A stretch of DNA of 64,000 nucleotides. Source: a virus. The position numbers and the translations under genes are program-made. The notes under the pieces are model-generated. The model saw only the letters and a program-made list of their open reading frames with translations. It did not search any database and had not been told where the DNA came from. This document shows positions 3,293-60,024 of this stretch, in pieces; the first letter of the stretch is position 1, and each line of letters begins with the position of its first letter. Location of the stretch: the IMG/VR virus record IMGVR_UViG_3300046028_008994. One strand, given 5' to 3'.

Positions 3293-3308
3293 ATTATATA
3301 TTACAAAC

Positions 3309-4800: not shown

Positions 4801-4845
4801 TTATAATACATAAAGAAGAGTCTATTTTCATATATTTATTAATAT

Positions 4846-5484: not shown

Positions 5485-5487
5485 AAA

Positions 5488-5886: not shown

Positions 5887-5898
5887 TATTTATAATAT

Positions 5899-6638: not shown

Positions 6639-6650
6639 TATTTATATTAA

Positions 6651-7481: not shown

Positions 7482-7522
7482 TTTGGTAAAATAAAAAACA
7501 ATTTATATATTATAATAAAGTT

Positions 7523-8200
7523 ATGTCAGATAAGAAAAAATTCGATTTAGAATGTGTTACGCCCGGTTTTGCCAATGGCTTAGCACCAGGTGCACCATTC
7601 ACCGAATCTCAAAAATGGGAAATGGTAGTAGAGGCTGAAGAAGCATATGGTAAATTTCTAGATGCATTAAAATGTGATTGGAGAAATGACCCAAATTCAT
7701 CAAACACACCACACAGAGTAGCAAAAGCATATGTTTTTGATTTATGGAAAGGTAGATACGAGGATATGAGTGGAATAACTTCATTTCCATCAGATGGTTA
7801 TGATGGTATTGTAATCGAACGTAACATTCCATTAACAAGTATGTGTTCACATCACCACCAAACAATTGGAGGTGTAGTTCATGTTGGTTATATTGTTGGT
7901 GAAAATGGTAGTGTAATCGGTTTATCAAAATTAAATCGTATTGTAGAACATTTTGGGCGCAGAGGTGCTATTCAAGAACAATTAACATCAGCAATTCATC
8001 AAGCAGTAGATAAAGTTTGTGAAAACAACAGAGGTGTTATTGTAACAGTAGTAGCAACACACAATTGTGTAAAATGTAGAGGTGTTAAACATCAAGGTGC
8101 ATCAATGGTTACAACTAAAGCATCAGGAGTGTTTATGGATAATGCTAATCAAGCACGTACAGAGTATTTTGATAGTTTAAAAATTAATGGAAGTTTATAA
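7523..8200 (+). CDS. folE: GTP cyclohydrolase I
   Basis: TPHRVAK, SMCSHHH, GLSKLNR, QEQLT, HNCVKCRGV. Confidence 0.95.
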   Translation: MSDKKKFDLECVTPGFANGLAPGAPFTESQKWEMVVEAEEAYGKFLDALKCDWRNDPNSSNTPHRVAKAYVFDLWKGRYEDMSGITSFPSDGYDGIVIERNIPLTSMCSHHHQTIGGVVHVGYIVGENGSVIGLSKLNRIVEHFGRRGAIQEQLTSAIHQAVDKVCENNRGVIVTVVATHNCVKCRGVKHQGASMVTTKASGVFMDNANQARTEYFDSLKINGSL

Positions 8201-18902: not shown

Positions 18903-20336
18903 ATGATAAAAGAAAAATTCGGTTATTTAAAACCTGACGAAAGAAAGAAAATACTCCTAATATGCGATGATATTCGTGTACATTCAGGAGTAGCAACAGT
19001 TACAAGAGAAATAGTATTTCACACAGCTCAACATTTTAATTGGGTAAATTTAGGAGGAGCAATTAACCATCCTGAAGCCGGTAAACGTTTAGATTTATCT
19101 CAATCAATAAACGAGGCTACAGGTTTAACAGATTCTTCTGTATTTATGTATCCTGTAAATGATTATGGAACTCCAGATTTATTACGACATATAATAAAGA
19201 TTGAAAAACCAGATGCTATAATGCTAGTTACTGATCCACGTTATTTTATATGGTTGTTTAGTATGGAAAATGAAATTAGAAAACATATTCCAATTACTTA
19301 TTTGAATATCTGGGATGATTATCCAGCACCTTTATATAACAAACCATTTTATGAGGCTTGTGATTTATTAATGGGTATTTCAAAACAAACAGTTAACATT
19401 AACAAATTAGTTTTAGAAGAAAAAGCATCAGATAAAATCATTAAATATGTACCTCATGGTTTAAATCATGAAATATTCAAACCTTTAGATAAAAATGATC
19501 CTGCTTTAATTGAATTTAAGAAAAGAATACTTAAAGGCAAAGAATATGATTTTGTGTTATTTTTTAACTCTAGAAATATTAGACGCAAACAAATCCCAGA
19601 TACTATTTTAGCATACAGACATTTTATAGATAAATTAACTGCTGAACAAGCTAAAAAATGTGCTTTTGTATTACATACTGAAAGAGTAAGTGAACATGGT
19701 ACTGATTTAGATGCTGTTATTGAATTATTAGCTAATGGTGAAGAATACAATATTATCTTTACAGATGATAGATTTGACCCACACCAAATGAATTTGCTTT
19801 ATAATTGTACAGATGCTCAAATTTTATTAACTTCAAATGAAGGTTGGGGATTAAGTTTAACTGAAGCATTATTGACAGGTAAACCAATTATTGCTAACGT
19901 AACAGGTGGAATGCAAGACCAAATGAGATTTGAATTTGAAGATGGAACGTGGATTGATTTCACCCCAGATTTTCCTTCAAACCATAATGGAACTTACAAA
20001 AAACATGGTAAATGGGCATACCCAGTATACCCAACCAATAAATCATTGGTAGGTTCACCAGTAACACCGTATATATGGGATGATAGATGTACAGCCGAGG
20101 ACGCTGCTGAACAAATTATGAACGTTTATACAGACGAAAATCGTGTTGAAAACGGTTTAGCAGGTAGAGAATGGGCATTAAGCGATGAAGCCGGATTTAC
20201 AGGTGAAAAACAAGGTATTAGAGTAATAAATGCATTTGATGAATTATTTTCAACTTGGGAACCAAGAGAAAAATTCGAATTTATTAATACCAATGAAGTT
20301 AAGGATAGAAAAATAAACCATAAATTATTATACTAA
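18903..20336 (+). CDS. GT-B (GT4-like) glycosyltransferase
   Basis: HSGVA, YVPHG, RNIRRK, EGWGLSLTEA. Confidence 0.9.
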   Translation: MIKEKFGYLKPDERKKILLICDDIRVHSGVATVTREIVFHTAQHFNWVNLGGAINHPEAGKRLDLSQSINEATGLTDSSVFMYPVNDYGTPDLLRHIIKIEKPDAIMLVTDPRYFIWLFSMENEIRKHIPITYLNIWDDYPAPLYNKPFYEACDLLMGISKQTVNINKLVLEEKASDKIIKYVPHGLNHEIFKPLDKNDPALIEFKKRILKGKEYDFVLFFNSRNIRRKQIPDTILAYRHFIDKLTAEQAKKCAFVLHTERVSEHGTDLDAVIELLANGEEYNIIFTDDRFDPHQMNLLYNCTDAQILLTSNEGWGLSLTEALLTGKPIIANVTGGMQDQMRFEFEDGTWIDFTPDFPSNHNGTYKKHGKWAYPVYPTNKSLVGSPVTPYIWDDRCTAEDAAEQIMNVYTDENRVENGLAGREWALSDEAGFTGEKQGIRVINAFDELFSTWEPREKFEFINTNEVKDRKINHKLLY

Positions 20337-20340
20337 AAAA

Positions 20341-21630
20341 ATGAACAAACCGTTATTTATAATTAGTTCTGCATTTGATACTTACAGTGGGTATGGTGCT
20401 AGAAGTCGTGATCTGATCAAAGCAATTATTGAAACAGACAAATATGAGGTAAAACTATTATCTCAACGTTGGGGAAATACACCATTTGGTTTTTGTGAAG
20501 ACAATTCTGAATGGGAATTTTTAAGTAAATTAGTATTACCTAATAATCAATTACCTAAACAACCAGAAATTTGGATGCAAATTAGTGTTCCAAATGAATT
20601 CCAACCAGTAGGAAAATACAATATTGGTTGTACAGCAGGTATTGAAACAACAATATGTCCTCCTGATTTTGTAGAAGGTATAAATAGAATGGATCTAACA
20701 TTAGTATCTTCAGAACATGCTAAAAAAGTATTCCAAGATTCTAAATATGAAAAAAGAAATCAACAAACTAATCAATTAGAAGGAGTCGTTGAGTTAAATA
20801 AACCAATGGAGGTTTTATTTGAAGGTGCTAATTTAGATGTTTATAAAGCAATTGATACACCTTGTTCTTTAGATATTAACATAAAAGAAAGTTTTGCTTA
20901 CTTATTTGTAGGACATTGGATGCAAGGAGATCTTGGAGAAGATAGAAAAAACGTAGGTTTTTTAATTAAAGCATTTTATGAAACATTTAAAAACAAATCA
21001 AATAAACCAGCACTTATTTTAAAAACATCTCAAGTAGGTTCTTCATATGTTGATAGAGAAGAAATTTTGAAAAAAATTAAAATGATTAAAAAAACAGTTA
21101 ATTCTACAAACCTACCAAACATTTATTTATTACATGGTGAATTCACTGATGTTGAAATGAATGAAATATATAATCATTCTAAAATAAAAGCTATGATTAA
21201 TTTAACTAAAGGTGAAGGATTTGGAAGACCATTACTTGAATTTACTTTAAGCAAAAAACCATTAATTACAACAGGTTGGTCAGGACATTTAGATTTTTTA
21301 AATCCTGAATTTACTACTTTAATTGGAGGTAATTTAGCTAATGTTCACCCAAGTGCTGCTAATCAATTTATATTAAAAGAAGCACAATGGTTTTCACCAG
21401 ATCCAGGTCAAATAGGTTTTTATTTAAAAGATGTATTTGAAAATTATAAAAACTATACTGATGGAGCTAAACGTCAATCACACTATAGTAAAACTAACTT
21501 TAGTTGGGATAAAATGAAAGAAAAAACAGATGAATTATTTACTAAATATATTCCTGAATTTCCAAAACAAATAGAATTAAAATTACCTCAATTAAAAAAA
21601 ATTGAATTACCAAAATTACAAAAAATATAA
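20341..21630 (+). CDS. GT-B (GT4-like) glycosyltransferase
   Basis: SGYG, DRKN, GEGFGRPLLE, GWSGHLDF. Confidence 0.88.
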   Translation: MNKPLFIISSAFDTYSGYGARSRDLIKAIIETDKYEVKLLSQRWGNTPFGFCEDNSEWEFLSKLVLPNNQLPKQPEIWMQISVPNEFQPVGKYNIGCTAGIETTICPPDFVEGINRMDLTLVSSEHAKKVFQDSKYEKRNQQTNQLEGVVELNKPMEVLFEGANLDVYKAIDTPCSLDINIKESFAYLFVGHWMQGDLGEDRKNVGFLIKAFYETFKNKSNKPALILKTSQVGSSYVDREEILKKIKMIKKTVNSTNLPNIYLLHGEFTDVEMNEIYNHSKIKAMINLTKGEGFGRPLLEFTLSKKPLITTGWSGHLDFLNPEFTTLIGGNLANVHPSAANQFILKEAQWFSPDPGQIGFYLKDVFENYKNYTDGAKRQSHYSKTNFSWDKMKEKTDELFTKYIPEFPKQIELKLPQLKKIELPKLQKI

Positions 21631-22094
21631 TGAATAACGAACAAATGATAATATGCCCTAAATCAAAGGGCGATGCCTGTATGGTAACAGAAGCGACCCC
21701 AGGCATCAAAACATACTTTAGTTTTTCATGTGGTTTTCAAACAAATTCTTTAATGAAAGAAGGAGAAGATTTTTATGAAGAACAAATATCAATACTACCT
21801 GAATTATACAAAGATTTAACATGGAAAGATCCTGAAACCGAATTGATGTGGATTCCAAGCATGGTAAATGAACCTACTAAAGGTATGATTTTTGCTAATG
21901 GTCCTTCTAAAGATAGTTGGGGATGGTCAGCTGTAAAAGCAGTACCAGTAACAGAAGCAGAAGCTGAAAAATACCCAATTCCAGGTAAAAAAGGTGAGTA
22001 TTATAAATTGAGAATGGATATGACAACTATGAAAAATTTTTCTGAAAGAGAATACATAGATGCTTTATCTTATGTTGGCTTACTACCGGAATAA
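21630..22094 (+). CDS. hypothetical protein
   Basis: 154 aa coupled ORF in glycosylation island. Confidence 0.65.
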   Translation: MNNEQMIICPKSKGDACMVTEATPGIKTYFSFSCGFQTNSLMKEGEDFYEEQISILPELYKDLTWKDPETELMWIPSMVNEPTKGMIFANGPSKDSWGWSAVKAVPVTEAEAEKYPIPGKKGEYYKLRMDMTTMKNFSEREYIDALSYVGLLPE

Positions 22095-22109
22095 TCGTAT
22101 ATTGGCAGT

Positions 22110-22760
22110 ATGAAAATTAGTTATGCAATTACTGTCTGTAACGAACTAGAAGAAATAAAACAACTATTACCTTTTCTAATCGAAAATAAAAGAAAAGAAG
22201 ATGAAATAGTTGTTTTTTTCGACTCAGTTAATGGTTCTCAAGAAGTAGAACAATATTTAAGAAGTATTGAACCTGGTTTGACCTATACCCCAATTGAAAA
22301 TTATACTTTTAGATGGTATGGTTATGATTTTTATGGTGATTTTTCTAATATGAAAAATGAACTTACTGAATTTTGTAAAGGTGATTATATATTCAATATA
22401 GATGCTGATGAAATGATTTCTAAAGATTTTATTGAGGTATTACCTTTAATCATTGAAAATAATCCTGAAGTAGAATTTTATTGGGTCCCAAGAGAAAATT
22501 ACGTAACAGGAATAACTCAAGAACATATTCAAAAATGGGGTTGGAAATTAGATAATTACAACAGAATAAATTACCCAGATTATCAAGGTCGTATTTACAA
22601 AAATGAACCTAATAGAATTATGTGGGTAAATAAGGTTCATGAAAGAATTGTAGGATATAAACATTATTCAACATTACCTGATAACCAGGCTTTTTCAATA
22701 AACCATACAAAAACAATAGAAAAACAAGAAAAACAAAACGAGTTTTATAATACAATATGA
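22110..22760 (+). CDS. GT2 glycosyltransferase
   Basis: ISYAITVCNE, IDADE, PDYQGR, VHE. Confidence 0.85.
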   Translation: MKISYAITVCNELEEIKQLLPFLIENKRKEDEIVVFFDSVNGSQEVEQYLRSIEPGLTYTPIENYTFRWYGYDFYGDFSNMKNELTEFCKGDYIFNIDADEMISKDFIEVLPLIIENNPEVEFYWVPRENYVTGITQEHIQKWGWKLDNYNRINYPDYQGRIYKNEPNRIMWVNKVHERIVGYKHYSTLPDNQAFSINHTKTIEKQEKQNEFYNTI

Positions 22761-23569
22761 AAATAAAAACATCCCATTTTGATAAAAAATTATTTGAAGA
22801 TAAACTTCAACATTTATCCCATTTAGATTTTTCGTTATTCGTAGAAACTCCTCCACAATCACAAGATGAATTATCAAACATAAACATTATTTCATTCCAA
22901 GAACCTAATGAGTATTTTGGTTTACATGATTGGACTATCCAAAATAAAAATTTATTTGATGTTATACTAACACAAAGTGATAAAGTATTAAATAATTGTG
23001 ACAATGCTACTTTCCAACCGTTTGGACATACTTGGTTACAACCAGATCAATATAATAAAGAACATGATAAAAATTTTCAATTATCTCACTTATGTGGTAA
23101 ATTATTAAAAACATATGGTCATTCTTTAAGACATGAAACTTTAGCAAGACAAAATGAATTTAATATTCCTCTTAAATTTTATGATGTTTATGGAGATAGA
23201 AATAACATTGAAGATGCTCGTTTAGGTAAAGAATTTATATTTGGAGATTCACAATTTGGAGTAGTAATTGAAAATACTTCACGTAGAGGATATTTTACTG
23301 AAAAAATATTAGATTGTTTTTTACTTAAAACTATTCCAATTTATTGGGGTTGTTCGAATATTGGGGATTTTTTTGATATAGACGGTATTATTACGTTTAA
23401 TAACGTAGATGATTTAATATATATATCTAATAATTTAACAGAAGATTATTATGAATCTAAAAAAGAAATTATAAATAAAAATTGGGAATTAGCTTTAAAG
23501 TTTGTACATTACGAACAAAATATAATAAATAAAATAGAAGAAATTTTTAAACACAACAATATAATATGA
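22757..23569 (+). CDS. GT10-like glycosyltransferase
   Basis: IEN...YFTEKILDCF...IPIYWG. Confidence 0.75.
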   Translation: MKIKTSHFDKKLFEDKLQHLSHLDFSLFVETPPQSQDELSNINIISFQEPNEYFGLHDWTIQNKNLFDVILTQSDKVLNNCDNATFQPFGHTWLQPDQYNKEHDKNFQLSHLCGKLLKTYGHSLRHETLARQNEFNIPLKFYDVYGDRNNIEDARLGKEFIFGDSQFGVVIENTSRRGYFTEKILDCFLLKTIPIYWGCSNIGDFFDIDGIITFNNVDDLIYISNNLTEDYYESKKEIINKNWELALKFVHYEQNIINKIEEIFKHNNII

Positions 23570-24708
23570 AAAAAATATGGTACGCCCCCTATAAGTTTGA
23601 ATCTTATGGAGAAGAAGAAATTAAAGCAGTAGAAGAATCATTACGTTCAGGGTGGTTAGGTGGACAAGGTCCTAAATCTGTTGAATTTGAAGAAAAAATT
23701 GCTAAACGTTTCGGAAAAAAATATGGAGTGTTTGTAAACTCAGGATCATCAGCTTGTTTATTAGCATTAGCTTGTTTACAATTACCAAAAGGAACCAAAG
23801 TTATTACACCAGCTTGTACATTTTCAACAACATTAGCTCCTATGATTCAATTAGGACTTAACCCAGTATTTGTAGATGTAGGATTAAACGATTACGTAGC
23901 TGACATCGATCAAATAATAGAAGCTATTACACCTGAAGTTAAAGTAATTATGTTACCTAATTTAATTGGTAACAAACCAGATTGGAAAAAACTAAAAAAT
24001 GATATAAAATTTTTAGGTAGAAAAGATATTATATTAATTGAAGATTCGGCAGATACTATTACTAATACTCCTGAGTCAGATATTGCTACTACAAGTTTTT
24101 ATGCTTCTCATGTTATTACTGCTGGTGGTACAGGAGGTATGGTGATGTTTAATGATAAAAAATTAGTAAATGTTTGTCTTCAATTTAGAGATTGGGGTCG
24201 TTTAGGTGGAGATTCTGAAATAATGTCTGATCGTTTTAATCATATGGTTGATGATATTCCTTATGATCATAAATTTTTATATAGTGTTTTAGGATACAAT
24301 TTTAAATCATCAGAAATGAATGCTGCTTTTGGTTTAGTTCAATTAAAACGATTTGAGAATTTTGAACAAATTAGAAGAAAAAATGTCGAGCGTTATATTG
24401 AAAATCTTAAAGATGTAAAAGAAATTTTATTACCTGATGATTCTATCCACCCTAATTGGTTAGCTATTCCTTTACAAACAGAAAAAAGATATGAGTTACT
24501 TAATTTTTTAGAAGATAATAATATTCAAACTAGAGTAACATTTGCTGGTAATGTAACTCGCCATCCTGCCTATAGAGAATATTTACAAGATTTTACAAAC
24601 TCTGATATTATTATGAAAAATGGATTTTTATTAGGAGCACATCATGGAATGACTGTTGGTGATGTGGATTATGTATGTGATAAAATTAAAGAATTTTTTA
24701 ATAAATGA
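23566..24708 (+). CDS. DegT/DnrJ-family PLP/PMP enzyme, probable NDP-4-keto-6-deoxyhexose 3-dehydratase (RfbH/DdhC/ColD-like)
   Basis: VNSGSSA, IEDSAD, SFYASHVIT (His at the Schiff-base Lys position), RDWGR, YDHKF, GYN. Confidence 0.8.
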   Translation: MKKIWYAPYKFESYGEEEIKAVEESLRSGWLGGQGPKSVEFEEKIAKRFGKKYGVFVNSGSSACLLALACLQLPKGTKVITPACTFSTTLAPMIQLGLNPVFVDVGLNDYVADIDQIIEAITPEVKVIMLPNLIGNKPDWKKLKNDIKFLGRKDIILIEDSADTITNTPESDIATTSFYASHVITAGGTGGMVMFNDKKLVNVCLQFRDWGRLGGDSEIMSDRFNHMVDDIPYDHKFLYSVLGYNFKSSEMNAAFGLVQLKRFENFEQIRRKNVERYIENLKDVKEILLPDDSIHPNWLAIPLQTEKRYELLNFLEDNNIQTRVTFAGNVTRHPAYREYLQDFTNSDIIMKNGFLLGAHHGMTVGDVDYVCDKIKEFFNK

Positions 24709-25322
24709 TAGATTTAAAAAAACAAATAGTCAAAATTGCTTTTAAGCACAAATTAAGTCACTTAGGAAGTTACCTTTCTAGTGTTGATATAATAGATGAA
24801 ATATATTCTAAAATGAATAAAGATGATATATTCATCCTATCCTCAGGACATGCTTCATTAGCGATGTATGTTTGTATAGAAAAATATTTTGGTATTGATG
24901 CTGAAATGTTATTTTTAAAACATGGAGGTCACCCTCATAGAGATGAAGAAAATAAGATTCATTGTTCAACAGGTAGTTTAGGTTTAGGTTTACCTATAGC
25001 ATTAGGTAGAGCATTAGCTAATCCAAATAGAAAAGTATGGGTATTAATTAGTGATGGTGAGGCAGCTGAAGGAAGTATTTGGGAATCACTTAAAACAATT
25101 CAAGAATTAAATATTAACAATATTGAGGTATTTGTTAATATAAATGGATTGTGTGCTTATAAAGAAGTAGATATTGATTACATGTCAATAAGACTTAAAT
25201 CATTTTTACCTCGAATTGAATTAAGATACACTACAGTAGAACAATATCCTTTTTTAAAGGGATTAAATGCTCACTACCATGTAATGTCAGAAGAAAATTA
25301 TAATCAAGTTATAAACATATGA
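24705..25322 (+). CDS. transketolase N-terminal (TPP-binding) subunit
   Basis: SHLGS, LSSGH, TGSLGLG, SDGE..EG. Confidence 0.88.
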   Translation: MIDLKKQIVKIAFKHKLSHLGSYLSSVDIIDEIYSKMNKDDIFILSSGHASLAMYVCIEKYFGIDAEMLFLKHGGHPHRDEENKIHCSTGSLGLGLPIALGRALANPNRKVWVLISDGEAAEGSIWESLKTIQELNINNIEVFVNINGLCAYKEVDIDYMSIRLKSFLPRIELRYTTVEQYPFLKGLNAHYHVMSEENYNQVINI

Positions 25323-25795
25323 GAAAAGAATTCGCACAACTATTACATACCGAAATGATTAATAATCCTGATATTTATTTAATCACAGGTGATCTAGGAT
25401 ATGGATTATGGGATAAAATCAAAAATGATTATCCTAATAGATTTTACAATGTTGGATCTTCAGAAATGGCTATGATGGGAGCAGCTATTGGTTTAGCTAT
25501 GGATGGAAAAATTCCATATGTTTACTCAATTACACCATTTGCCATCTACAGACCATTTGAAATGATTAGAAATTATCTTGATCACGAAAATATCCCAGTA
25601 AATATTGTTGGAGGAGGTAGAGATAGAGATTATAGTTATTTAGGATTTTCACACTGGTCACACGATGATAGAAGAATAATGGGTGTTTTTGATAATGTAA
25701 AATCATTTTGGCCTGAAGATGAAGATGAATTGCTAAATAGTTTTCAATTTTCACTTACAAAACAATCACCTACTTATATAAATCTTAAACGATGA
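25319..25795 (+). CDS. transketolase pyrimidine-binding subunit
   Basis: TGDLG, NVGSSE, RPFEMIR, GFSH. Confidence 0.88.
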   Translation: MRKEFAQLLHTEMINNPDIYLITGDLGYGLWDKIKNDYPNRFYNVGSSEMAMMGAAIGLAMDGKIPYVYSITPFAIYRPFEMIRNYLDHENIPVNIVGGGRDRDYSYLGFSHWSHDDRRIMGVFDNVKSFWPEDEDELLNSFQFSLTKQSPTYINLKR

Positions 25796-26571
25796 ATGTA
25801 TTAATAACAGGTGGAAATGGTTATGTTGCTAAAAGTCTTTATAATGCTTTAAAAGAAAAATATAATATAACTTTAATTACAAGAAAAAATTTTGATTTAA
25901 CAGATTCATTTGAAACTCTTAAATTTTTTTCTAATAAATATTTTGATATTGTAATCCATACTGCGGCTGTTGGTGGTAGTAGACTCAAACCAGAAAACTC
26001 GTCTACTATGGATCAAAATCTTCAAATGTATTATAATTTATTATCATGTAAAAACAAATACAATAAATTTATATATTTTGGTTCAGGAGCAGAAATATAT
26101 AACCCTGAATCACCATATGGTTTAAGTAAAAGAGTAATTGCTAAATCAACATCAGAAATTGAAAATTTTTATAATATAAGAATATTTGGTGTGTTTGATG
26201 AAAATGAATTAGATACTAGATTTATAAAAACATGTATTAGAAAATATATTAATAAAGAACCAATGTTGGTACAAGATAAAAAAATGTCCTTCTTCTATAT
26301 GCAAGATTTAATTACATTAGTAGATCATCATATTCAAACCCCCTCAAGTTCTTTATTAAAAGAAAGTAATTGTGCTTATCTTAACTCAACTTCATTAATA
26401 GATATAGCTAATATTATAAATGAACTAGATGATTATAAAGTTCCAATTTATATAGATACACAAGTAGGAAAAGATTATGAATCAAAATATAATGCTCCGT
26501 ATTTACTAAAATATATTGGATTAAATCAAGGAATTATAAAAACATATAATAAATTAAAAAATGAATATTAA
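25792..26571 (+). CDS. NAD-dependent epimerase/dehydratase/reductase
   Basis: TGGNGYV, HTAA, YGLSK. Confidence 0.88.
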   Translation: MNVLITGGNGYVAKSLYNALKEKYNITLITRKNFDLTDSFETLKFFSNKYFDIVIHTAAVGGSRLKPENSSTMDQNLQMYYNLLSCKNKYNKFIYFGSGAEIYNPESPYGLSKRVIAKSTSEIENFYNIRIFGVFDENELDTRFIKTCIRKYINKEPMLVQDKKMSFFYMQDLITLVDHHIQTPSSSLLKESNCAYLNSTSLIDIANIINELDDYKVPIYIDTQVGKDYESKYNAPYLLKYIGLNQGIIKTYNKLKNEY

Positions 26572-27502
26572 AATAACGCTCCATATAATGCCATGGGATA
26601 TAGATTGTGCATTATTAGTTTTTGATAAATTAAAACAATCTTCTTATTTTATTAGTAATGAAGATAAAATTTATATTGATTCTTTTTTAAATTTATCTCA
26701 CGACATTATTGATTGGGATAATTCTTCATTTCCAAAAGAATATTTTATAAAAAAATATCAAATATTAGATGATCTAGTTAAAAATGTTTTTATCCATAAA
26801 CCATTTATATATGACAAAGAAGGAATTTATGGTCATTTAGATTCCCAAAAAACCATAATTGAACCATTTATTGATTATTACATAGGATTATGTCCTGATG
26901 TTGAATTTCAAGAACATCTTCTTTATTATTTAATAGAATCAGCAAAACAAATAAAAAATGAATATTTTGTTTTAACTCCTCAAATTTTTAAGAGTTGGGA
27001 TTCAAGTTGGGATATTTTAGTAAATGATAAATTTCAAGACATCCCTTACAATCAATGTTATAATATTGATATTCATAAAATAAGACATGACTGTTTAGAA
27101 TTAGACACTCCTACACTTAAACTTTCTCCTGGTTTTAAATTTGCTGGTTGGCTTGATTTGTATAGTAAAAATTTTTATGAAAAATTAATACCTACTTTAG
27201 ATGAATGGAAAGGATATGGTCCTTGGGATTTATATGCTATGAATGTATGTAATATTGCAAAATCTAAAGGAGTAGATGTTGAACAATATATTTTAGAAAA
27301 CCAAGTAATATGGTTTAAAGATGTAGGTTGTTGGCAAAATGAAGAAGAACATGCGGGTCATGGAAAAATAAGATTAATTTATAAAGATTTTTTAACAATA
27401 AAACTTGGAAGACAAGAACAAAGATCGTATATTGATACAAATATTATTCATTATTTAAACCAATGGATAGAATATGCTAAAAATAATAATATAATTAAAT
27501 AA
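26561..27502 (+). CDS. putative GT-A glycosyltransferase
   Basis: CPDV (DxD-like), GYGPWD; island context. Confidence 0.5.
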   Translation: MNIKITLHIMPWDIDCALLVFDKLKQSSYFISNEDKIYIDSFLNLSHDIIDWDNSSFPKEYFIKKYQILDDLVKNVFIHKPFIYDKEGIYGHLDSQKTIIEPFIDYYIGLCPDVEFQEHLLYYLIESAKQIKNEYFVLTPQIFKSWDSSWDILVNDKFQDIPYNQCYNIDIHKIRHDCLELDTPTLKLSPGFKFAGWLDLYSKNFYEKLIPTLDEWKGYGPWDLYAMNVCNIAKSKGVDVEQYILENQVIWFKDVGCWQNEEEHAGHGKIRLIYKDFLTIKLGRQEQRSYIDTNIIHYLNQWIEYAKNNNIIK

Positions 27503-27505
27503 AAA

Positions 27506-28204
27506 ATGATAAAAACAATAACAACTTATGAAGATCTAGTTCAAGATCTTATTGACAACAAAATTACAATGGTTAGACCAGATGAATTTAAAACTATATT
27601 TAAACATTATCCTAAAATACAACAAGTAGAAGGAGATGTAGTAGAATGTGGTGTTTGGAGAGGAGGTTTTTCAATATTTCTTAGTTATATATTCCAGGAT
27701 AAAAACATTTGGGTTTGTGATTCATATGAAGGTTTTCAACCACCTGAAATAGCTAAACATCAATATGATAAAGAAAGACATACTCATCTTGTTACTCACA
27801 ACGCTGTAGGTCCATTAGCTATTAGTCTTGAAGAAGTTCAATTACATTTTAAAACATATGGTTTAGGTGAAGAAGAAAGAATTAAATTCTTAAAAGGATT
27901 TGTTAAAGATACTTTACCAACATCAGGAATTGAAAAAGTTTCATTATTAAGAATAGACGTAGATGCTTATTCTGCTACATTAGAAACATTAGAGGAATTA
28001 TATGATAAAGTACAACCTGGAGGATATATAATATTTGATGATTCTTGTTTATATGAAACTTTAGATGCTATTAAAACATTTTTTAAACAAAGAAATATAG
28101 AAGAATATATTTTACACCCTGTTACTGATGAAAAATTATCATTAAATGCTCAACACACAAATGATGATTCAGGTTTTCCCGCAGGTTGTTATATTATAAA
28201 ATAA
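27506..28204 (+). CDS. TylF/MycF-family sugar O-methyltransferase
   Basis: GDVVECGVWRGG, DSYEG, KGFVKDTLP, LRIDVD, GGYIIFDD. Confidence 0.92.
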   Translation: MIKTITTYEDLVQDLIDNKITMVRPDEFKTIFKHYPKIQQVEGDVVECGVWRGGFSIFLSYIFQDKNIWVCDSYEGFQPPEIAKHQYDKERHTHLVTHNAVGPLAISLEEVQLHFKTYGLGEEERIKFLKGFVKDTLPTSGIEKVSLLRIDVDAYSATLETLEELYDKVQPGGYIIFDDSCLYETLDAIKTFFKQRNIEEYILHPVTDEKLSLNAQHTNDDSGFPAGCYIIK

Positions 28205-28211
28205 ATAAAAT

Positions 28212-28943
28212 ATGAAAAAAACATTAACTCAAATTGCAAATGCAGTTGTTTCCCAAAATGGGGAATCAAATGGGATTGATAAAGGAACAATTAAGAATTC
28301 ATGTCATGGGTTTACAAAAGCATATGATAATATATTAACTCCTTTAAGAGAAAAACCTATTCTTATGTTAGAAATAGGAGTATCGGGAGGGGGTTCCCTT
28401 AAAATGTGGGAAGAATATTTCACAGATGTTACAATTATTGCTCTAGACATTGTTGATGAGACTCATCTATCAAATAATAAAACTTTTGTTTATCAATTAG
28501 ATCAATCTAATGAAACTCAATTACAGAATTTTGTAAATCAATGTAACGAAAATGGATATGAATTTGATTTTATTATTGATGATGGAAGTCATCATATGAG
28601 AGACCAACAATTAACATTAGCTTATTTATTTCCATTACTAAAACCTCAAGGAATATACATTATAGAAGATCTTCATACATCTTTACTTCCTAATGGTTAC
28701 CCAATATATGGAAAACTTATAGAAATTCACCCAAACAGACATAATACTACATTAAATTATCTTTCTCATGGTATAGATAGCATTTATATTACGGCAGAAC
28801 AAAATAAATATTTAAATGAAAATATTGATTATATCAATATACATAATATATTTAATCCTATTATAGATACATGGCATGAATCTTTAGGTGTAGGAAAACC
28901 ATATAAAGGAAGAAGCATAACATCATTCATATTTAAAAAATAA
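28212..28943 (+). CDS. class I SAM methyltransferase
   Basis: LEIGV..GGSL, IIDDGSH, GIYIIEDL. Confidence 0.85.
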   Translation: MKKTLTQIANAVVSQNGESNGIDKGTIKNSCHGFTKAYDNILTPLREKPILMLEIGVSGGGSLKMWEEYFTDVTIIALDIVDETHLSNNKTFVYQLDQSNETQLQNFVNQCNENGYEFDFIIDDGSHHMRDQQLTLAYLFPLLKPQGIYIIEDLHTSLLPNGYPIYGKLIEIHPNRHNTTLNYLSHGIDSIYITAEQNKYLNENIDYINIHNIFNPIIDTWHESLGVGKPYKGRSITSFIFKK

Positions 28944-28946
28944 AAA

Positions 28947-29528
28947 ATGAAAATAATTCAAATCGGGGCTAATAATGGAAAAGATAACGTTTTTGATTTC
29001 ATTAAAGAAAATCAAAAATCACTAGAGTTAGCAATATTGATAGAACCTATACCTTTTATTATCAATGAATTAAAAGATCAGTATAAAGATATAAATAATA
29101 TTGTAGTAGAAAATATAGCTATAACTAATGAAGAAAATCTTGAACAAATGACTCTATATTATTTAGGAGATAGTAATTATGAAGTAAGTTCATTTAGTAA
29201 ACATCATGTAATAACCCATAAACCTCCAGGTTCATCATTTCCATTAGAATCATTAGAAGTTTCTTGTTTAACTATTAATAAGATTATGAATAAATATGAT
29301 TTAGAAATAATAGATTATTTATTTATAGATACTGAAGGATTAGATGTTCATATAATAGCTAGTATTGATTTTACAAAGTATAAAATTAAAAATATTATAT
29401 TTGAAGCTGTTCATACTGATGGTGCATTTAGTAAAGGTGAAAATTTTAATAAAATATGTAATTATTTAAATCAATTAGGATATAATTTATCAAATATAGA
29501 CCAATTAAACATAAAAGCTAGTTTATGA
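28947..29528 (+). CDS. FkbM-family methyltransferase
   Basis: IQIGANNG, IEP, IDTEGLD. Confidence 0.88.
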   Translation: MKIIQIGANNGKDNVFDFIKENQKSLELAILIEPIPFIINELKDQYKDINNIVVENIAITNEENLEQMTLYYLGDSNYEVSSFSKHHVITHKPPGSSFPLESLEVSCLTINKIMNKYDLEIIDYLFIDTEGLDVHIIASIDFTKYKIKNIIFEAVHTDGAFSKGENFNKICNYLNQLGYNLSNIDQLNIKASL

Positions 29529-30205
29529 AAATAATATATAGAATATCAGACGCAGGTTACAATAAAGTAAAACCTGACTATATTAACAATGAAAATTGTT
29601 TAAGGAATTTCGTTCATGTGTTTGGTAATCAAAATTTAGAAATTATAGCAGATAACTGTAGTGAAGAAACACTACGTATGATTACTAAATATGTACATCC
29701 AAATAAAATACAAAATGTATCTATTGGACATGGAGCAGGAACATTTAATCTAGCTTTAGATAAAGCATTAGAATATGATGATGAAACAATAGTTTATTTT
29801 GTAGAGAATGATTACCTTCATAGAGAAAAATCACCAGAAGTTTTAGTTGAAGGATTACAATTAGGATATGATTATGTTTCTTTGTATGATCATCCTGATA
29901 AGTATATTAACGGAGCAAATCCATTTGTAGAAGATGGTGGGGAGGTAACAAGACTAATGCTAACAAATTCTTGTCATTGGAAGTTAACAAACTCTACAAC
30001 TATGACATTTGCTGCTAGAGTAAGTACTTTAAAACAAGATGAAGCAATCCTAAGAGATTTTACATCAGGAACACACCCCAACGACTTTCCAATGTTCTTA
30101 GCTTTAAGAGAAAAGCAACATGGATTAGTAACACCAGTACCAGGATACTCTACACACGGAGAAACAGCTTGGTTAACACCTTTAACAGATTGGAGTAAGA
30201 TATGA
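29525..30205 (+). CDS. putative GT-A glycosyltransferase
   Basis: YFVENDYLH, YDHPDKY. Confidence 0.65.
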   Translation: MKIIYRISDAGYNKVKPDYINNENCLRNFVHVFGNQNLEIIADNCSEETLRMITKYVHPNKIQNVSIGHGAGTFNLALDKALEYDDETIVYFVENDYLHREKSPEVLVEGLQLGYDYVSLYDHPDKYINGANPFVEDGGEVTRLMLTNSCHWKLTNSTTMTFAARVSTLKQDEAILRDFTSGTHPNDFPMFLALREKQHGLVTPVPGYSTHGETAWLTPLTDWSKI

Positions 30206-30954
30206 TAAGCGTAATTATACCAACATATAAGTCACCAGAGGCTTTGGATCTATGCTTACGTTCAGCAATTAAGGGTCAACAAAACGAAAATCAAATCATA
30301 GTGGTTATAGATGGCTTCTATGATATTAATAAAGAGGTACTGGAAAAGTATGCTAATGATATTGAAATATTAGTTTTAGAAGAAAACGCAGGATTGTGTA
30401 GAGGTACTAATTTAGGAGTTTACAATGCTGAGTATGATAAAATTCTTATTGTAAACGATGATAATGTATTTCCAATAGACTGGGACGTTCAACTTGAAAA
30501 AGTATATAATCCTCATTTTGTTATATCACCTAATCAAATAGAACCAAACCCAAGTATGTTTAGACAATTTCATATTAGAGATTGTGGTCGTGATCCTAAA
30601 ACATTTAGTTTAGAAAATTTTAATTTATATGAAGAACCATTAAGAGGAAATCCAGATGATATGACCGGTTCTACATTACCTATATTAATGTCTAAAAAGA
30701 TGTTTTTAAGTGTTGGTGGTTGGGATGAAAATTATCAAGACGGAATGGTAGCTGATTGGGATTTCTTTTTAAAATGCCAACTTATAGGATTAAAAATGAT
30801 GAGAACATATAATTGTCATTTTTATCACTTTGCCTCTGTTTCTGTAAATGGAGAAAAAAGAAGACAAGCCGAATTAAATGGATATGAATATTCTAAATAC
30901 AAGTGGGGTGATTATATAAAACACAATCCTGAAGATAATTTGAAATATATTTAA
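30202..30954 (+). CDS. GT2 glycosyltransferase
   Basis: ISVIIPTY, NDDN, GGWDE, DWDF. Confidence 0.9.
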   Translation: MISVIIPTYKSPEALDLCLRSAIKGQQNENQIIVVIDGFYDINKEVLEKYANDIEILVLEENAGLCRGTNLGVYNAEYDKILIVNDDNVFPIDWDVQLEKVYNPHFVISPNQIEPNPSMFRQFHIRDCGRDPKTFSLENFNLYEEPLRGNPDDMTGSTLPILMSKKMFLSVGGWDENYQDGMVADWDFFLKCQLIGLKMMRTYNCHFYHFASVSVNGEKRRQAELNGYEYSKYKWGDYIKHNPEDNLKYI

Positions 30955-38367: not shown

Positions 38368-38404
38368 AAGGCTTGGTTATCCAGGCCTTTTTTTGTATAT
38401 TTAC
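38368..38404 (+). promoter_or_regulatory. Terminator hairpin overlapping promoter for cassette array/thyA
   Basis: AAGGCTTGG-ttat-CCAGGCCTT, T-run, GTATATTT. Confidence 0.72.
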
Positions 38405-38625: not shown

Positions 38626-38674
38626 TGTTCCAAACAAATCACAATAACATACAACAATAAAACAATAGAAAGTT

Positions 38675-38887
38675 ATGAAAATTAATAGACCAAAAGATGG
38701 TGACTATAGATATAAAACTAAGTTTTTATGGTTCCCTAAAAGATTTGATGGCGGGTGGTATTGGTTAGAAATTGTAACCATTAGACAAGTATATTTTTAT
38801 TATGGACTAATCCCAGGATGGTATAATGTGTGTTTGTCAAACCCAGAATCAGGTCTCCCAATAAGTATTGACCCCATTAAAAAATAG
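38675..38887 (+). CDS. hypothetical cassette protein
   Basis: KFLWFPK...WYWLE; starts in repeat. Confidence 0.6.
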   Translation: MKINRPKDGDYRYKTKFLWFPKRFDGGWYWLEIVTIRQVYFYYGLIPGWYNVCLSNPESGLPISIDPIKK

Positions 38888-38893
38888 AAAGTT

Positions 38894-39247
38894 ATGAATA
38901 AAGAACAACAAGAATTATTGGATGAGGCTTATAAGAATTATTCTAAAAAAATGATGTATCATCCGGTGGAAAATTGGTTAGATGATGGAAATGGTGAAAA
39001 AACTTACCGACAATTATCACAAGAAGAATTCATCAACAAATGTAAAAACGATACAGAGTTCTCTGGAAGGTGGGGATTAAAGATTGAAGAACGAGAATTA
39101 GATATGATGGAAAGATGGAAGATAGCCGACCTAACACCTAATATGGAAGAATTTGATTTTGCTAATTATATGTGCGACAAACACAATGTACCAACCAAAC
39201 TAATCACAATAACATACAACGATAAAAAAATAGAAAGTTATGAATGA
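38894..39247 (+). CDS. ThyA-loop-derived cassette protein 1
   Basis: DEAYKNY, SQEEFINKCKND, WG, REL, NVPT. Confidence 0.75.
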   Translation: MNKEQQELLDEAYKNYSKKMMYHPVENWLDDGNGEKTYRQLSQEEFINKCKNDTEFSGRWGLKIEERELDMMERWKIADLTPNMEEFDFANYMCDKHNVPTKLITITYNDKKIESYE

Positions 39248-39443
39248 AGAAGAAAAATTTGTAGATTGGATTGAAAGTCTAGTTGGTCGGGAAATTGTAG
39301 ATTATAATATTAAACCAAAGTTTGATGATGACGGAAACGTTTTATCCTATGATATTATGGTACAGCCAAAAATGTCATTACAATATTTAGAGATTCCAAT
39401 TACGATATCATCAACAGATAAAACAATAGAAAGTTATGAATAA
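39240..39443 (+). CDS. hypothetical cassette protein
   Basis: Starts and ends in repeats; ends DKTIESYE. Confidence 0.65.
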   Translation: MNEEEKFVDWIESLVGREIVDYNIKPKFDDDGNVLSYDIMVQPKMSLQYLEIPITISSTDKTIESYE

Positions 39444-39930
39444 AGAACAACAAGAATTATTGGATGAGGTTTATAAGAATTGGTGTAAACAATTTGAAGT
39501 TGACCCCAATAATTTTAATGTGGATGAATTAGTTAAAGGACACGGTGACCAGTGTTGGGGTTATCCTATATTAGACCATGTTAAACCAACATCAAAAGAA
39601 TATAAAAGAGGTCAAATAAACGCTTATTTAGAGGGTAAAGCAGATAGACCTTTCTTTTATTTATCAAAAGAAGAATTCATCAACAAATGTAAAACTGATA
39701 TTGTGTTCTCTGAAAAGTGGGGATTAAAGATTGAAGAACGAGAGTTGAGTTTGGAAGAAAGATGTGATGAATATATTAAAATAAATCCACAAGAAACAAA
39801 TGATGGAGTATTGAATTACAAATGGATTGGAGACAATCTATGTACTCATGAAGATTACAATAAATGGAATATCCCAACCAAACTAATCACAATCACATAC
39901 AACGATAAAACAATAGAAAGTTATGAGTAA
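39436..39930 (+). CDS. ThyA-loop-derived cassette protein 2
   Basis: Paralog of 38894; KEEFINKCKTD, RELSLEERC, NIPT. Confidence 0.75.
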   Translation: MNKEQQELLDEVYKNWCKQFEVDPNNFNVDELVKGHGDQCWGYPILDHVKPTSKEYKRGQINAYLEGKADRPFFYLSKEEFINKCKTDIVFSEKWGLKIEERELSLEERCDEYIKINPQETNDGVLNYKWIGDNLCTHEDYNKWNIPTKLITITYNDKTIESYE

Positions 39931-40204
39931 AAGAAAAGAAAAAAAAGACCGAATAAAACAAAGATGGGATGCACTTCAAACCGAGATTGACAATTTATTT
40001 AATTCAATTATGTATGAATCATTTACAGAATGGAAGGGTATTATTGAAATCGAAATCATACAAATCATTAAGAAATATAATGTTGTGGCTTGGTATGGTA
40101 GAGAATTGAAAGTAATTACATCAATACACCCAGTTGATAATGAATACACTTTTGATGTTAGAACAATCAAAGGTAATTGGAGAGTAATGAAAATTATTAA
40201 ATAA
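39923..40204 (+). CDS. hypothetical cassette protein
   Basis: Starts in repeat. Confidence 0.6.
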   Translation: MSKRKEKKDRIKQRWDALQTEIDNLFNSIMYESFTEWKGIIEIEIIQIIKKYNVVAWYGRELKVITSIHPVDNEYTFDVRTIKGNWRVMKIIK

Positions 40205-40223
40205 ATTAAGCTAATAGAAAGTT

Positions 40224-40373
40224 ATGAATGAAATACAATATTTTTTAAAAAAGGCAATAAGTTCTTGTAGAAAAGGTAAATTTTACTACAGACCTTGGAA
40301 ACAATTACTAACTATTATTCTACTACAAATTAAATGTAGGATATTAACAGGAAAAACATTAGACAAACTATGA
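40224..40373 (+). CDS. hypothetical cassette protein (49 aa, not in ORF track)
   Basis: Starts in sixth repeat; stop overlaps thyA start (ATGA). Confidence 0.55.
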   Translation: MNEIQYFLKKAISSCRKGKFYYRPWKQLLTIILLQIKCRILTGKTLDKL

Positions 40374-41539
40374 ACAATCTAGATAAACAATACACAGACC
40401 TACTTCAAGACATTCTTGATAATGGTGTACAAAAAGGAGACCGCACAGGAACTGGAACCATTTCAGTATTCGGTAGACAAATTCGTCATAAAATGAGTGA
40501 TGGTTTTCCATTACTTACAACTAAGAAGATGCCTTTCAAAACAATTGTAACTGAATTGTTATGGTTTTTAAGAGGTGATACAAACATTAAGTTCCTTGTG
40601 AATAATGGTTGTCATATTTGGGATGGTGATGCATATAAAAATTATTTGAATGTGGTTATGTTTGAAAAACCTGACTATCTACACGAAAAACACGGGCATC
40701 TTAATATGAGTGTAAAAAAAGAAGGTGATAACTATCTACCATTTACACAAGAAGAATTTATCAATAAAATTAAAACTGATGATAAATTTAGACATTGGGG
40801 TGAGTTAGGTCCGATTTATGGTAAACAATGGAGGCGTTGGACTAAAAAGAAAATGTGGTTATCAACCGATGGCTCATATGAAAACATTTATGATGAAGCT
40901 GACCAAACGGTTATTGACCAAATAGCTGGATTAATCAACGACCTTAAAACAAATCCAGATTCAAGACGATTGATGGTTAATGCTTGGAATGTAGGTGAAT
41001 TAGATGAAATGGTACTTCCACCTTGTCATTATGGATTTCAACTTTATACAAGAGAGTTGAGTTTTGATGAAAGATGTAAAATACAAATCGATAGATTAGA
41101 TGGGATGTATTCATCAGAAAAAGATTTGTTTATCCATCATTCAATTAATGCGGTAAAACAAATAAAAATGGATAAAAACAATATCCCAACCAGAGCAATC
41201 TCTTTAATGTGGAATCAACGTTCAGTAGATACTGGGTTAGGATTAGGTTTTAATATAGCTAGTTATGGATTGTTATTAGAGATTTTTGCTAAAGAAGTAA
41301 ATATGGTTCCTGATGAGCTTATAGGTAATTTAGGAGATGTACATTTGTATTTGGATCATGTAGAACCTATTAAAGAACAATTAACAAGAGAACCATTCCA
41401 ATTACCTAAACTAAAAATTAAACAACATTCTATTGATGAACCAAGTCCTTTAACAAAACCTCAATATTGGCATCCTGATGATTTTGTAGTTGAAAATTAC
41501 CAATCTCATCCTACTATTAAACTTCCCTTATCAAATTAA
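40370..41539 (+). CDS. thyA: thymidylate synthase with large insertions
   Basis: DRTGTGT, FPLLTTKK, ELLWFL, GPIYGKQWR, DSRR, LPPCH, QRSVD, FNIASY, DVHLY. Confidence 0.97.
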   Translation: MNNLDKQYTDLLQDILDNGVQKGDRTGTGTISVFGRQIRHKMSDGFPLLTTKKMPFKTIVTELLWFLRGDTNIKFLVNNGCHIWDGDAYKNYLNVVMFEKPDYLHEKHGHLNMSVKKEGDNYLPFTQEEFINKIKTDDKFRHWGELGPIYGKQWRRWTKKKMWLSTDGSYENIYDEADQTVIDQIAGLINDLKTNPDSRRLMVNAWNVGELDEMVLPPCHYGFQLYTRELSFDERCKIQIDRLDGMYSSEKDLFIHHSINAVKQIKMDKNNIPTRAISLMWNQRSVDTGLGLGFNIASYGLLLEIFAKEVNMVPDELIGNLGDVHLYLDHVEPIKEQLTREPFQLPKLKIKQHSIDEPSPLTKPQYWHPDDFVVENYQSHPTIKLPLSN

Positions 41540-41592
41540 TGTAGAAAATGTATTTTTCATATATTTATAATCAACGGAATGTTGATAGATTT

Positions 41593-42372
41593 ATGGAAAA
41601 TTATTATTTATATTATCATAAAAACCCACTAACTAAAGAGTTATTTTATATTGGGATAGGAACAAATAAAAGAGCATGGGATTTTACCTCAGGAAGAAAT
41701 CCTCATTATAAAAATTATATTAAAAAACATGGTGAACCTATAGTGGATATAATTAAAGAAAATCTTACTAAAGAAGAAGCATGTTCTATTGAAATGGAAT
41801 ATATAGCTAAATATGGAAGAAAAGGAATAGAACCTAAAGGTATATTACTAAACAAAAGTATTGGAGGAGAGATTATTGCTTTAGGAAATAAATTTACTGA
41901 AGAGCAAAAACAAAAAATAGTTCAAGCTAAAACAGGACAAAAATATAATATACCTGAAGGAAGAGCCCATGGTAGTAAAGGTAAACCTAAACCTGATGGA
42001 TTTATGAGTGATGAAATAAAAGAAAAAATTAGCAAAGGAAATAAAGGAAAAAAACATAGTAAAATTCACAGTAATAAAGGAATACCTATCTCTGAAGATA
42101 CTAAGCAAAAAATAAGTAAGGCTAATTCTAAACCCAAACCAGAAGGTTTTGGAAATACTATTAAACAAAATAGAAACCATAAATTAATAGGAGAAAAAAA
42201 TAGTAAACCTATCATTCAATTAGATACTCAAAATAATATAATTTGTGAATTTAAATCTGTTAAAGAAGCACTTAAATATTTTAAAAAATCAATAAATAAC
42301 TCTTGCATAACAGCTTGCCTAAAAGGAAGACAAAAAACAGCTTTTGAGTATGTTTGGAAATACAAAGAATAA
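41593..42372 (+). CDS. free-standing GIY-YIG homing endonuclease
   Basis: YLYYH...FYIGIG..RA, E...I, LLN; NUMOD3-like repeats; YVWKY tail. Confidence 0.85.
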   Translation: MENYYLYYHKNPLTKELFYIGIGTNKRAWDFTSGRNPHYKNYIKKHGEPIVDIIKENLTKEEACSIEMEYIAKYGRKGIEPKGILLNKSIGGEIIALGNKFTEEQKQKIVQAKTGQKYNIPEGRAHGSKGKPKPDGFMSDEIKEKISKGNKGKKHSKIHSNKGIPISEDTKQKISKANSKPKPEGFGNTIKQNRNHKLIGEKNSKPIIQLDTQNNIICEFKSVKEALKYFKKSINNSCITACLKGRQKTAFEYVWKYKE

Positions 42373-42389
42373 TTCGTATATTAATAACA

Positions 42390-42602
42390 ATGATTAAATT
42401 AAAGTTAATAAATCCCGTAGGTGATATCGTTAAAGATATTGAATTATCAGAATGGACAGATATTGAAAGTTTTAAATCAAGTCATAGATTTATATTAGAG
42501 TCTAGCGATGGTTCAATATTCAATTACTCAGAAAAAGAATGGATGGAATTACCTCCTGATTATCAATCACACCCAACAATTAAAGCACCTTTATCTAATT
42601 AA
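42390..42602 (+). CDS. hypothetical protein ending in a copy of the ThyA C-terminus
   Basis: Ends YQSHPTIKAPLSN vs ThyA YQSHPTIKLPLSN. Confidence 0.65.
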   Translation: MIKLKLINPVGDIVKDIELSEWTDIESFKSSHRFILESSDGSIFNYSEKEWMELPPDYQSHPTIKAPLSN

Positions 42603-58436: not shown

Positions 58437-59381
58437 ATGAAAAACATACATTTAATACCAACAGATAAATTAAGTAGGTTAGGTAGATTTATTGATACTG
58501 ACAATTTAGTTTTAAGAACGGATGATGATATACCAAGAGGTGAAAACATAAACATTTACATTACTTCTGATGAAGAAATTAAAGAAGGGGATTTGATTTT
58601 ACCACCATCTAATATTCCTGTTAGATACGATGGACAAAAATACAAAGGTGATGAACCATTAAAATGTTGGAAAAAAATAATCCTAACAACAGACCGAGAC
58701 TTAATCAAAGATGGTGTTCAAGAAATTGATGATGAGTTTTTAGTATGGTTTGTAAATAATCCAAGTTGTGAGTGGGTTGATGTTACTGATTGGATGGACA
58801 CGAATGGTAATATTGCTTTTGGTGGGGATGTAAGATATCAAATATCTTCTTCTACATATAACAAAATCATCATTCCACAAGAAGAACCTAAACAAATTAA
58901 ATGTTATTGTGGTCATACTATAACTTGTGATTGTGAACCTTTACAAGAAACACTTGAAGAAGCTGCTGAAATGTATATTCAATCAAAAAATCCACAATGG
59001 ACACCATATCATAAACAATCTTTTAAAGATGGTGCTAAATGGCAAGATGAGAGAAGCCAAAAAATAGTACCTTTTGATGCTGTAGATATTGAAGTATTTG
59101 CAATAAAACCAAATGAAGATGGGAAATTATTTGCTTATATTGGGTATAAAATTGCTAATGGAAATTTCGAATTCAATGTTGTACCTTTTACTGAACCTCA
59201 AGCAGAAAGAATGTATAGTGAGGAAGATATGTTTGAATTTTCTCAATGGATTTCTCATGAAGATTGGGTTTATTTACCAAGTAAAGATTATTGGGTAAAT
59301 GAAGAACAAGAAGAATTAGAACAGAAATTAAGCTCAAAGGAAATATTGAATCTATGGTTTGAACAACTTAAAAAGAAATAA
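58437..59381 (+). CDS. modular hypothetical protein (ETLEEAAE / KWQ / ERMYSEEDM modules)
   Basis: Modules repeated in the next gene. Confidence 0.7.
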   Translation: MKNIHLIPTDKLSRLGRFIDTDNLVLRTDDDIPRGENINIYITSDEEIKEGDLILPPSNIPVRYDGQKYKGDEPLKCWKKIILTTDRDLIKDGVQEIDDEFLVWFVNNPSCEWVDVTDWMDTNGNIAFGGDVRYQISSSTYNKIIIPQEEPKQIKCYCGHTITCDCEPLQETLEEAAEMYIQSKNPQWTPYHKQSFKDGAKWQDERSQKIVPFDAVDIEVFAIKPNEDGKLFAYIGYKIANGNFEFNVVPFTEPQAERMYSEEDMFEFSQWISHEDWVYLPSKDYWVNEEQEELEQKLSSKEILNLWFEQLKKK

Positions 59382-59649: not shown

Positions 59650-60024
59650 ATGAAACAAGAGATTAAACCAACATACACAACCTTTGAACAAGCCAAATGG
59701 CTAAAAGAAAAAGGATTTGATATACCTTGTAGAGAAGGATGGTATATAGCTCAATTAGACCCTTATAAAGGTCAGCTATTTCCTGATGATACAGGAGGTA
59801 AACACGAAATAGAAAAACCAGAACAACACCAAGTTGTTGAATGGTTAAGGATTAACCATGGTATTTGGATTAGTGTTCAACAAGATGTTAATAAATACGA
59901 TGCTTACATAAAAAATAAAAAATATGATAGAACAAAAGTTCAACATGTAACCAACCAATTTAATTTACCGCAAGAAGCATATTCAGGAGCATTTGATTAC
60001 ATTAAAGACAATAATTTGATATAA
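59650..60024 (+). CDS. hypothetical phage protein
   Basis: FEQAKWLKEKGFD...VVEWLR..HGIWI. Confidence 0.65.
   Translation: MKQEIKPTYTTFEQAKWLKEKGFDIPCREGWYIAQLDPYKGQLFPDDTGGKHEIEKPEQHQVVEWLRINHGIWISVQQDVNKYDAYIKNKKYDRTKVQHVTNQFNLPQEAYSGAFDYIKDNNLI

Follow-up and report, generated by a model that had tools for sequence, protein, structure and literature searches.

Core-less offshoots of a phage thymidylate synthase share a pool of exchangeable loops with the enzyme

Why does a phage carry, just ahead of its thymidylate synthase (TS) gene, small free-standing genes that resemble the variable parts of that enzyme? The question is raised by a 64,000-nucleotide stretch of viral DNA (IMG/VR record IMGVR_UViG_3300046028_008994, here called the window), part of a complete phage genome (171,684 bp, bearing terminal repeats) that is detected across many lake-water metagenomes. 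Small plus-strand genes precede thyA, and a homing endonuclease gene lies directly 3′ of it (Table 1). The original prediction was that two of the small genes consist of the two variable insertions of the adjacent ThyA, freed of the catalytic core, and that they act either as donor cassettes supplying alternative loops to thyA or as decoys of the ThyA surface. Are these genes truly related to thyA? Do loops move between them, and in which direction? What might the encoded proteins do?

Table 1. Features of the thyA locus, in window coordinates
Feature	Position	Strand	Remarks
Terminator-like hairpin	38368..38389	+	Closes upstream gene, just 5′ of array; consensus match only, 1 found against 1.0 expected in shuffles
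ORF, 71 aa	38410..38625	+	Module 1 (small-domain-like) only; distant member; homologue in L108
Orphan mini-gene 3′ end	38629..38679	+	Behind stop codon; recombination scar supplying the next gene's start
13-nt junction ATAGAAAGTTATG, six copies	38665..40226	+	At 38665, 38884, 39230, 39426, 39913 and 40214; ends one gene, starts the next
Mini-gene 1, 117 aa	38894..39247	+	Helix, loop 1, small-domain helices, strand, loop 2, two strands
Mini-gene 1 loop 1	38942..39019	+	Shared by 43 minis that differ widely in loop 2; in 0 sampled ThyAs (sample biased to this query)
Mini-gene 1 loop 2	39116..39184	+	In 107 minis; in 0 sampled ThyAs (sample biased to this query)
Unrelated ORF, 67 aa	39240..39443	+	Acquired mini-gene 3′ end (junction repeat)
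Mini-gene 2, 164 aa	39436..39930	+	
Mini-gene 2 loop 1, 61 aa	39484..39666	+	90% identical to L156 ThyA loop 1; DNA 85% over 258 nt
Mini-gene 2 loop 2	39763..39867	+	86% to minis of L247 and L307
thyA, 389 aa	40370..41539	+	Long-form TS, catalytic motifs intact
ThyA variable loop 1	40646..40747	+	Within small domain
ThyA variable loop 3	40841..40912	+	Residues 158-181; no regular part of minis
ThyA variable loop 2	41075..41176	+	Core β-hairpin; 71% identity to its counterpart in minis P0045 and L101; DNA 82.6% over 149 nt
NUMOD-type homing endonuclease	41548..42372	+	Directly after thyA
Small ORF	42354..42602	+	C-terminus is a copy of the last 14 residues of ThyA; homologue in L085

Thymidylate synthase and its core-less relatives

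The thyA product scores above the cut-offs of PF00303 and TIGR03284 (313.8 and 299.8 bits). Every residue of the set checked (the PCH cysteine, RR, RS-D, the dUMP-specifying asparagine and H-x-Y) is present, as C219, R199/R200, R284/S285/D287, N295, H325 and Y327, and these are invariant in 86 relatives. By family and by catalytic and substrate-binding residues the gene is assigned to TS, and synthesis of dTMP is predicted. A search of the 171,684-bp genome for DHFR found none.

The sequence aligns with long-form TS (L. casei 1lca, E. faecalis 3uwl, S. aureus 4dq1; PF00303, TIGR03284) through the small domain. The proposal that the first insertion lies where L. casei ThyA has its small domain is thereby upheld, only the inner loop being hypervariable. 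The small domain of long-form TS is highly variable among organisms (PMC6479881); the present ThyA group differs in having three to four hypervariable, swappable loops. Both of the large insertions originally described are there but the third variable loop had been overlooked, and a fourth occurs in about 20% of relatives. Inserted intron- or intein-like elements with endonuclease-like ORFs split or lengthen thyA in five loci (L081, L118, L130, L151 and L152), and several of these elements sit at the start of loop 1.

Colinear two-segment alignments of the two mini-proteins with the window ThyA score 117-118, the best of 1000 shuffles reaching 68-75, and three neighbouring ORFs aligned likewise gave chance scores. 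The boundary motifs do occur in the same order with the core removed, and the DNA-level matches noted earlier (39018/40746, 39740/41052 and 39868/41180) are all present. The homology exceeds the loops: LKIEEREL and PTKLITITYN of the mini-proteins correspond to the ThyA core strands FQLYTREL and PTRAISLMWN, and the shared region takes in the helix that precedes loop 1, the small domain's closing helices and the two core strands around loop 2. On sequence grounds, then, ORFs 38894 and 39436 are thyA without its catalytic core, that is the small domain and two core β-strands with a variable loop on each. Compared with long-form TS they retain the closing helices of the small domain and two core strands but are missing the catalytic cysteine, the residues that bind substrate and the bulk of the fold. 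No TS model matches them, nor did searches of Pfam (PF00303 included), PHROGs and NCBIfam give a match, the catalytic core being deleted; PADLOC and known defence and counter-defence families likewise gave none. ORF 38410, suggested as a more distant third member, carries module 1 by profile (E 2.2e-5) and that module only, its pairwise alignment not being significant.

A model of the mini-protein folds confidently (pLDDT 87); the AlphaFold model of the window ThyA is poor (pLDDT 60). The best Atlas structural match of the mini-protein is a viral ThyA, with a TM-score of 0.47-0.50 over residues 4-110, which lends borderline support to the modelled mini-protein being one contiguous TS subdomain. 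Its nearest named neighbours are TS models (TM 0.41-0.50) and searches of solved structures with it produced no match (best Z 3.0). Complex prediction for ThyA with a mini-protein gave 0.26 against a mark of 0.32. We conclude that the mini-proteins descend from the TS fold.

Since Firmicute ThyA also has the small domain and the strands belong to the TS core, we infer that the mini-genes derive from thyA and not the reverse. An internal deletion in a long-form phage thyA would have fused the WG that closes the small domain to the YG that follows the catalytic cysteine. The glycine codon at this putative junction is GGA in 94% of mini-genes; in thyA the YG codon is GGA in 82% and the WG codon GGT in 89%, so that the mini-gene codon agrees with the former and differs from the latter. 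The homology that marks descent by core deletion is plain, the exact junction presumptive.

The family is large, with 4,243 clusters at 90% identity, or 420 at 50% identity with E<=1e-10, and a single locus has one to seven copies. Of 76 mini-gene loci about three quarters have thyA within 10 kb, almost always downstream. The mini-genes are optional: among 51 loop-type ThyA clusters, only two have a mini-gene within 6 kb. None was found in GenBank phages or GTDB genomes, and a literature search for this family or arrangement returned no description; the family and its exchange system are real and undescribed. We note that sequence samples were ranked by likeness to the genes of this window. 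An apparent enrichment of mini-genes beside loop-less ThyA (10/38 as opposed to 2/51) was rejected, as the query had been picked for having mini-genes and matches cluster near the query.

Several observations concern the surroundings. Within the genome the 13-nt junction is confined to this array, and a promoter scan gave chance level. Genes 3′ of thyA often end in a PLSN-type ThyA C-terminus (window 42354-42602, L157 7285-7533, L158 7279-7476, L052 7903-8082); such genes are exchanged between close isolates, and in L052 and L074 the gene is a free ThyA loop 4 module. The window (58437-59381 and 59650-60024), L152 (14838-16875) and L103 (8144 and 12189) also contain further multi-copy families of small genes whose frames are conserved and whose middles vary. 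By eye, window positions 310-8200 hold a 7-deazaguanine pathway cluster (QueC-like 1370, QueD-like 3554, QueE-like 4018, FolE-like 7523), which suggests modified DNA; the gene at 310, with no NCBIfam match, is possibly DpdA-like. Positions 18903-30954, also judged by eye, hold a long run of glycosyltransferase-, methyltransferase- and sugar-biosynthesis-like genes.

Loop exchange and its direction

Loops were compared across 210 ThyAs and 235 mini-proteins, a ThyA twin being defined by at least 50% identity. Twins, at 50-100% identity, exist for 42 of 137 distinct mini loop 1 sequences and for 36 of 122 loop 2 sequences, against none in shuffled sets, so that loops are indeed shared between mini-genes and thyA. 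The window takes part in both ways, through loop 1 of mini-gene 2 and loop 2 of ThyA (Table 1). In one lineage (L090, L091, L115) a tract of 117 nucleotides is identical between the mini-gene and the thyA on its contig, both ends of the tract fall in the conserved flanks, and the mini-protein is an exact copy of its own ThyA in loop 2. This is the only lineage among 68 loci in which a mini-protein matches a loop of its own ThyA.

Between these flanks the loops are hypervariable, as anticipated. Chao1 estimates place the pool at 110-210 classes per site, and loops of different classes are unrelated. ThyA pairs with at least 93% core identity differ in loop 1 class in 648 of 736 cases and in loop 2 class in 706 of 790. 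Loop classes are thus uncoupled from the ThyA core, and loops 1 and 2 combine freely in both carriers. Two isolates of the cultured Flavobacterium phage immuto, whose genome has no mini-gene, differ by a clean swap of ThyA loop 3. The RecA-like and AAA_24 (Sak4-type) candidates encoded in the window's genome may take part in such exchange.

Are the mini-genes simply duplication debris? Within-class dN/dS for loops is 0.12-0.15 in pairs involving ThyA and 0.18-0.23 between mini-genes, and for the mini framework blocks 0.24-0.36, values from pairs that are not strictly independent and from samples ranked by likeness to the window. All 135 copies with the central motif are intact ORFs on inspection, contig ends apart, and none is clearly broken. 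The loops are under purifying selection and represent discrete conserved alleles rather than decay. Divergence between mini loops may date in part from time spent in thyA, and the purifying selection could reflect folding, not binding. The sole damaged-looking mini-gene noticed besides the scar at 38629 is at L147 9940-10360, its start lost or frameshifted by fusion with the upstream gene.

As to direction, L132 and L090 are 99.7% identical in the thyA region and their orthologous mini-genes match up to the loop 2 flank, beyond which the loops differ; copying from thyA to the mini-gene is therefore the simpler reading. The ThyA-type Ile/Val occurs in 26 of 215 mini-proteins and the mini-type Cys in none of 188 ThyAs (p 7e-8), an asymmetry to which selection in ThyA may add. 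Transfer from mini-gene to thyA, sought with synonymous-codon markers, gave no clear case and was not shown. Flow that can be oriented is thus most simply read as running from thyA to mini-gene, though the reverse may occur as well. Exact pieces from three sequencing runs reproduce parts of the window's arrangement and none spans the whole. A few mini/thyA joints and many alternative loops, seen in contigs at 85% likeness, were not counted as chimeras since they may come from other phages.

What the mini-proteins may do

At 20 loci mini-genes lie upstream of a different, 276-residue ThyA that has neither loop socket. These loop-less enzymes comprise 12 distinct sequences, 63-99% identical to each other, and the mini-proteins beside them carry loops of the common pool: 12 of 27 share their loop 1 class, and 12 their loop 2 class, with loop-type ThyAs of other phages. 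Two other small-protein families also have loop 2-type modules, as does the fourth site of ThyA; such a module also ends a DUF5662 protein, another lies within an RNA-ligase ORF whose integrity is uncertain, and one mini-protein bears ThyA loop 3 ectopically. It is the modules, and not the pairing of thyA with mini-gene, that look like the units of selection. The analysis shows that the mini-genes descend from thyA, exchange modules at the conserved flanks, are under purifying selection and do not depend on the loops of the phage's own ThyA.

In the RNA-ligase ORF, at L108 6651-7259, a hairpin has taken up a ThyA loop 4 module; the ORF stops at 202 residues, the same place as in an insert-free copy from L273, possibly an intron site. 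The two additional small-protein families (L052 3877-4987, L058 1626-2866, L223, L224) have other frameworks and draw on the same loop pool for module 1 or for modules 1 and 2.

We lean, with moderate confidence, towards reading the mini-protein as an autonomous domain that displays peptide modules. Each site would draw on a shared pool of 100-200 modules, borne by ThyA or by free scaffolds and probably serving host interaction. The product would be a self-contained domain of about 120 residues that has two loop sockets and is under selection of its own. Whole loops move among mini-genes, among thyA alleles and between the two through homologous recombination at the short conserved flanks; the six junction repeats may allow the array to expand and contract, and the mini-genes are perhaps expressed by translational coupling. 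The phage would display conserved modules on its essential enzyme, or more of them on free scaffolds. The most likely task of the modules would be to bind host or competitor proteins in the infected cell, for example in counter-defence or host adaptation, different modules being favoured in different hosts.

Among the alternatives the proposed decoy role ranks first. A host sensor or inhibitor would recognize the small-domain and hairpin face of phage ThyA, from which the enzyme escapes by loop swaps while the mini-proteins titrate the sensor. The resemblance of the mini model to viral ThyA models, the exact loop 2 copy in the L090/L091/L115 lineage and the variation of ThyA loops independently of the core would fit. 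However, because a match to the phage's own ThyA is confined to that one lineage, the idea of a decoy of the phage's own surface is weakened; mini-genes also persist beside ThyAs without the mimicked surface, the modules occur in unrelated scaffolds and a literature search found no defence system triggered by phage ThyA. We consider this version unlikely; a looser host-interaction role for the mini-proteins is likely.

Might the modules instead be nearly neutral or selfish, recombination near a homing-endonuclease-rich locus spreading tolerated loops and leaving the mini-genes as long-lived by-products? An endonuclease adjoins thyA in the window and similar ORFs occur at 15 of 80 loci by a rough motif test. 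The ectopic insertions into the RNA-ligase ORF and of loop 3 into a mini-gene, the acquisition of thyA or mini-gene 3′ ends by other genes and the patchy presence of mini-genes are also as this would have it. The low dN/dS of loops and framework, the conserved residues specific to mini-proteins and the near absence of broken copies argue against it, and we rate it lower again.

That the mini-genes store loops for conversion into thyA, in the manner of silent cassettes, is largely refuted as a main role and very improbable. Exchange at conserved flanks, the part of this proposal that concerned mechanism, is strongly supported by the twins and the 117-nt tract; adjacency is real too, and the mini-genes may serve as a population-level reservoir as a side effect. 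Yet the L132/L090 comparison and the Ile/Val and Cys asymmetry point the other way, mini-genes beside loop-less ThyA have no acceptor, immuto swaps a loop without a mini-gene, and donors would not need a conserved protein frame. Least credible of all is a TS regulator binding phage or host ThyA through the two retained core strands, for although mini-genes adjoin thyA of either type and keep these strands, the strands retain their alternating hydrophobic positions whereas the ThyA-invariant Q, T and S have become K, E and T, at positions which we take from the TS fold to face the dimer interface, and regulation would not call for loop alleles by the hundred.

Returning to the display domain, a wider and more tentative proposal, which we put forward at rather less than even confidence, is that large freshwater phages run a population-wide peptide display, in which recombination reassorts, on enzyme and mini-scaffold sockets, hundreds of discrete modules aimed at the host, such as inhibitors of its defence proteins. 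In any case an essential enzyme has given rise, through the loss of its core, to a new protein family that is still in genetic exchange with it, and recombining short surface peptides is an unusual viral route to varying a housekeeping protein. If the modules bind host factors they would amount to a large and untapped collection of peptides for phage-host interaction, set on a scaffold that is natural, stable and has two loops. The cultured pair immuto and Flavobacterium LMO8, with the same loop pool, makes the question testable.

Comparison with known systems

Neisseria pilS/pilE and Borrelia vls achieve antigenic variation by segmental gene conversion. In common with them, partial copies lie near a full gene and conversion tracts are bounded by conserved flanks, here in the 117-nt case. 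The mini copies differ in being intact ORFs under selection at the protein level, not non-coding or degenerate donors; the flow that can be oriented runs from full gene to copies, and the copies persist without an acceptor gene. Neither the donor status of silent cassettes nor their one-way direction from cassette to gene is seen in the mini-genes.

As far as the T4-type mobile cassettes that mediate modular shuffling are described where PMC3157838 cites Arbiol et al. 2010, the likeness lies in gene-junction repeats within an array of small accessory genes. The present repeat differs in being a coding 3′ end plus start codon, and no promoter stem-loop was found.

The T-even gp38 adhesins have hypervariable segments between conserved glycine-rich motifs, and share with the thyA system a conserved core, the reshuffling of variable segments through recombination within conserved motifs or close to them, and a population-wide library (PMC3157838). 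There the varying protein is a receptor-binding protein of the virion, whereas here it is a metabolic enzyme with core-less offshoots, and modules cross gene families. Glycine-rich motifs, a family match or a sequence relation to gp38 were not found in the mini-proteins or ThyA. By analogy, the thyA/mini system works like gp38 shuffling without being a member of the gp38 family. It shows a metabolic enzyme under cassette variation of a kind known from tail-fibre adhesins.

The closest cultured ThyA (54%) is that of Flavobacterium phage vB_FspM_immuto (MW353175, MW353176). It carries four loops from the same pool, its loop 1 being 86% identical to that of the L113 mini-protein. The phages differ in that immuto has no mini-gene and the window DNA polymerase has no close match in immuto or other cultured phages.
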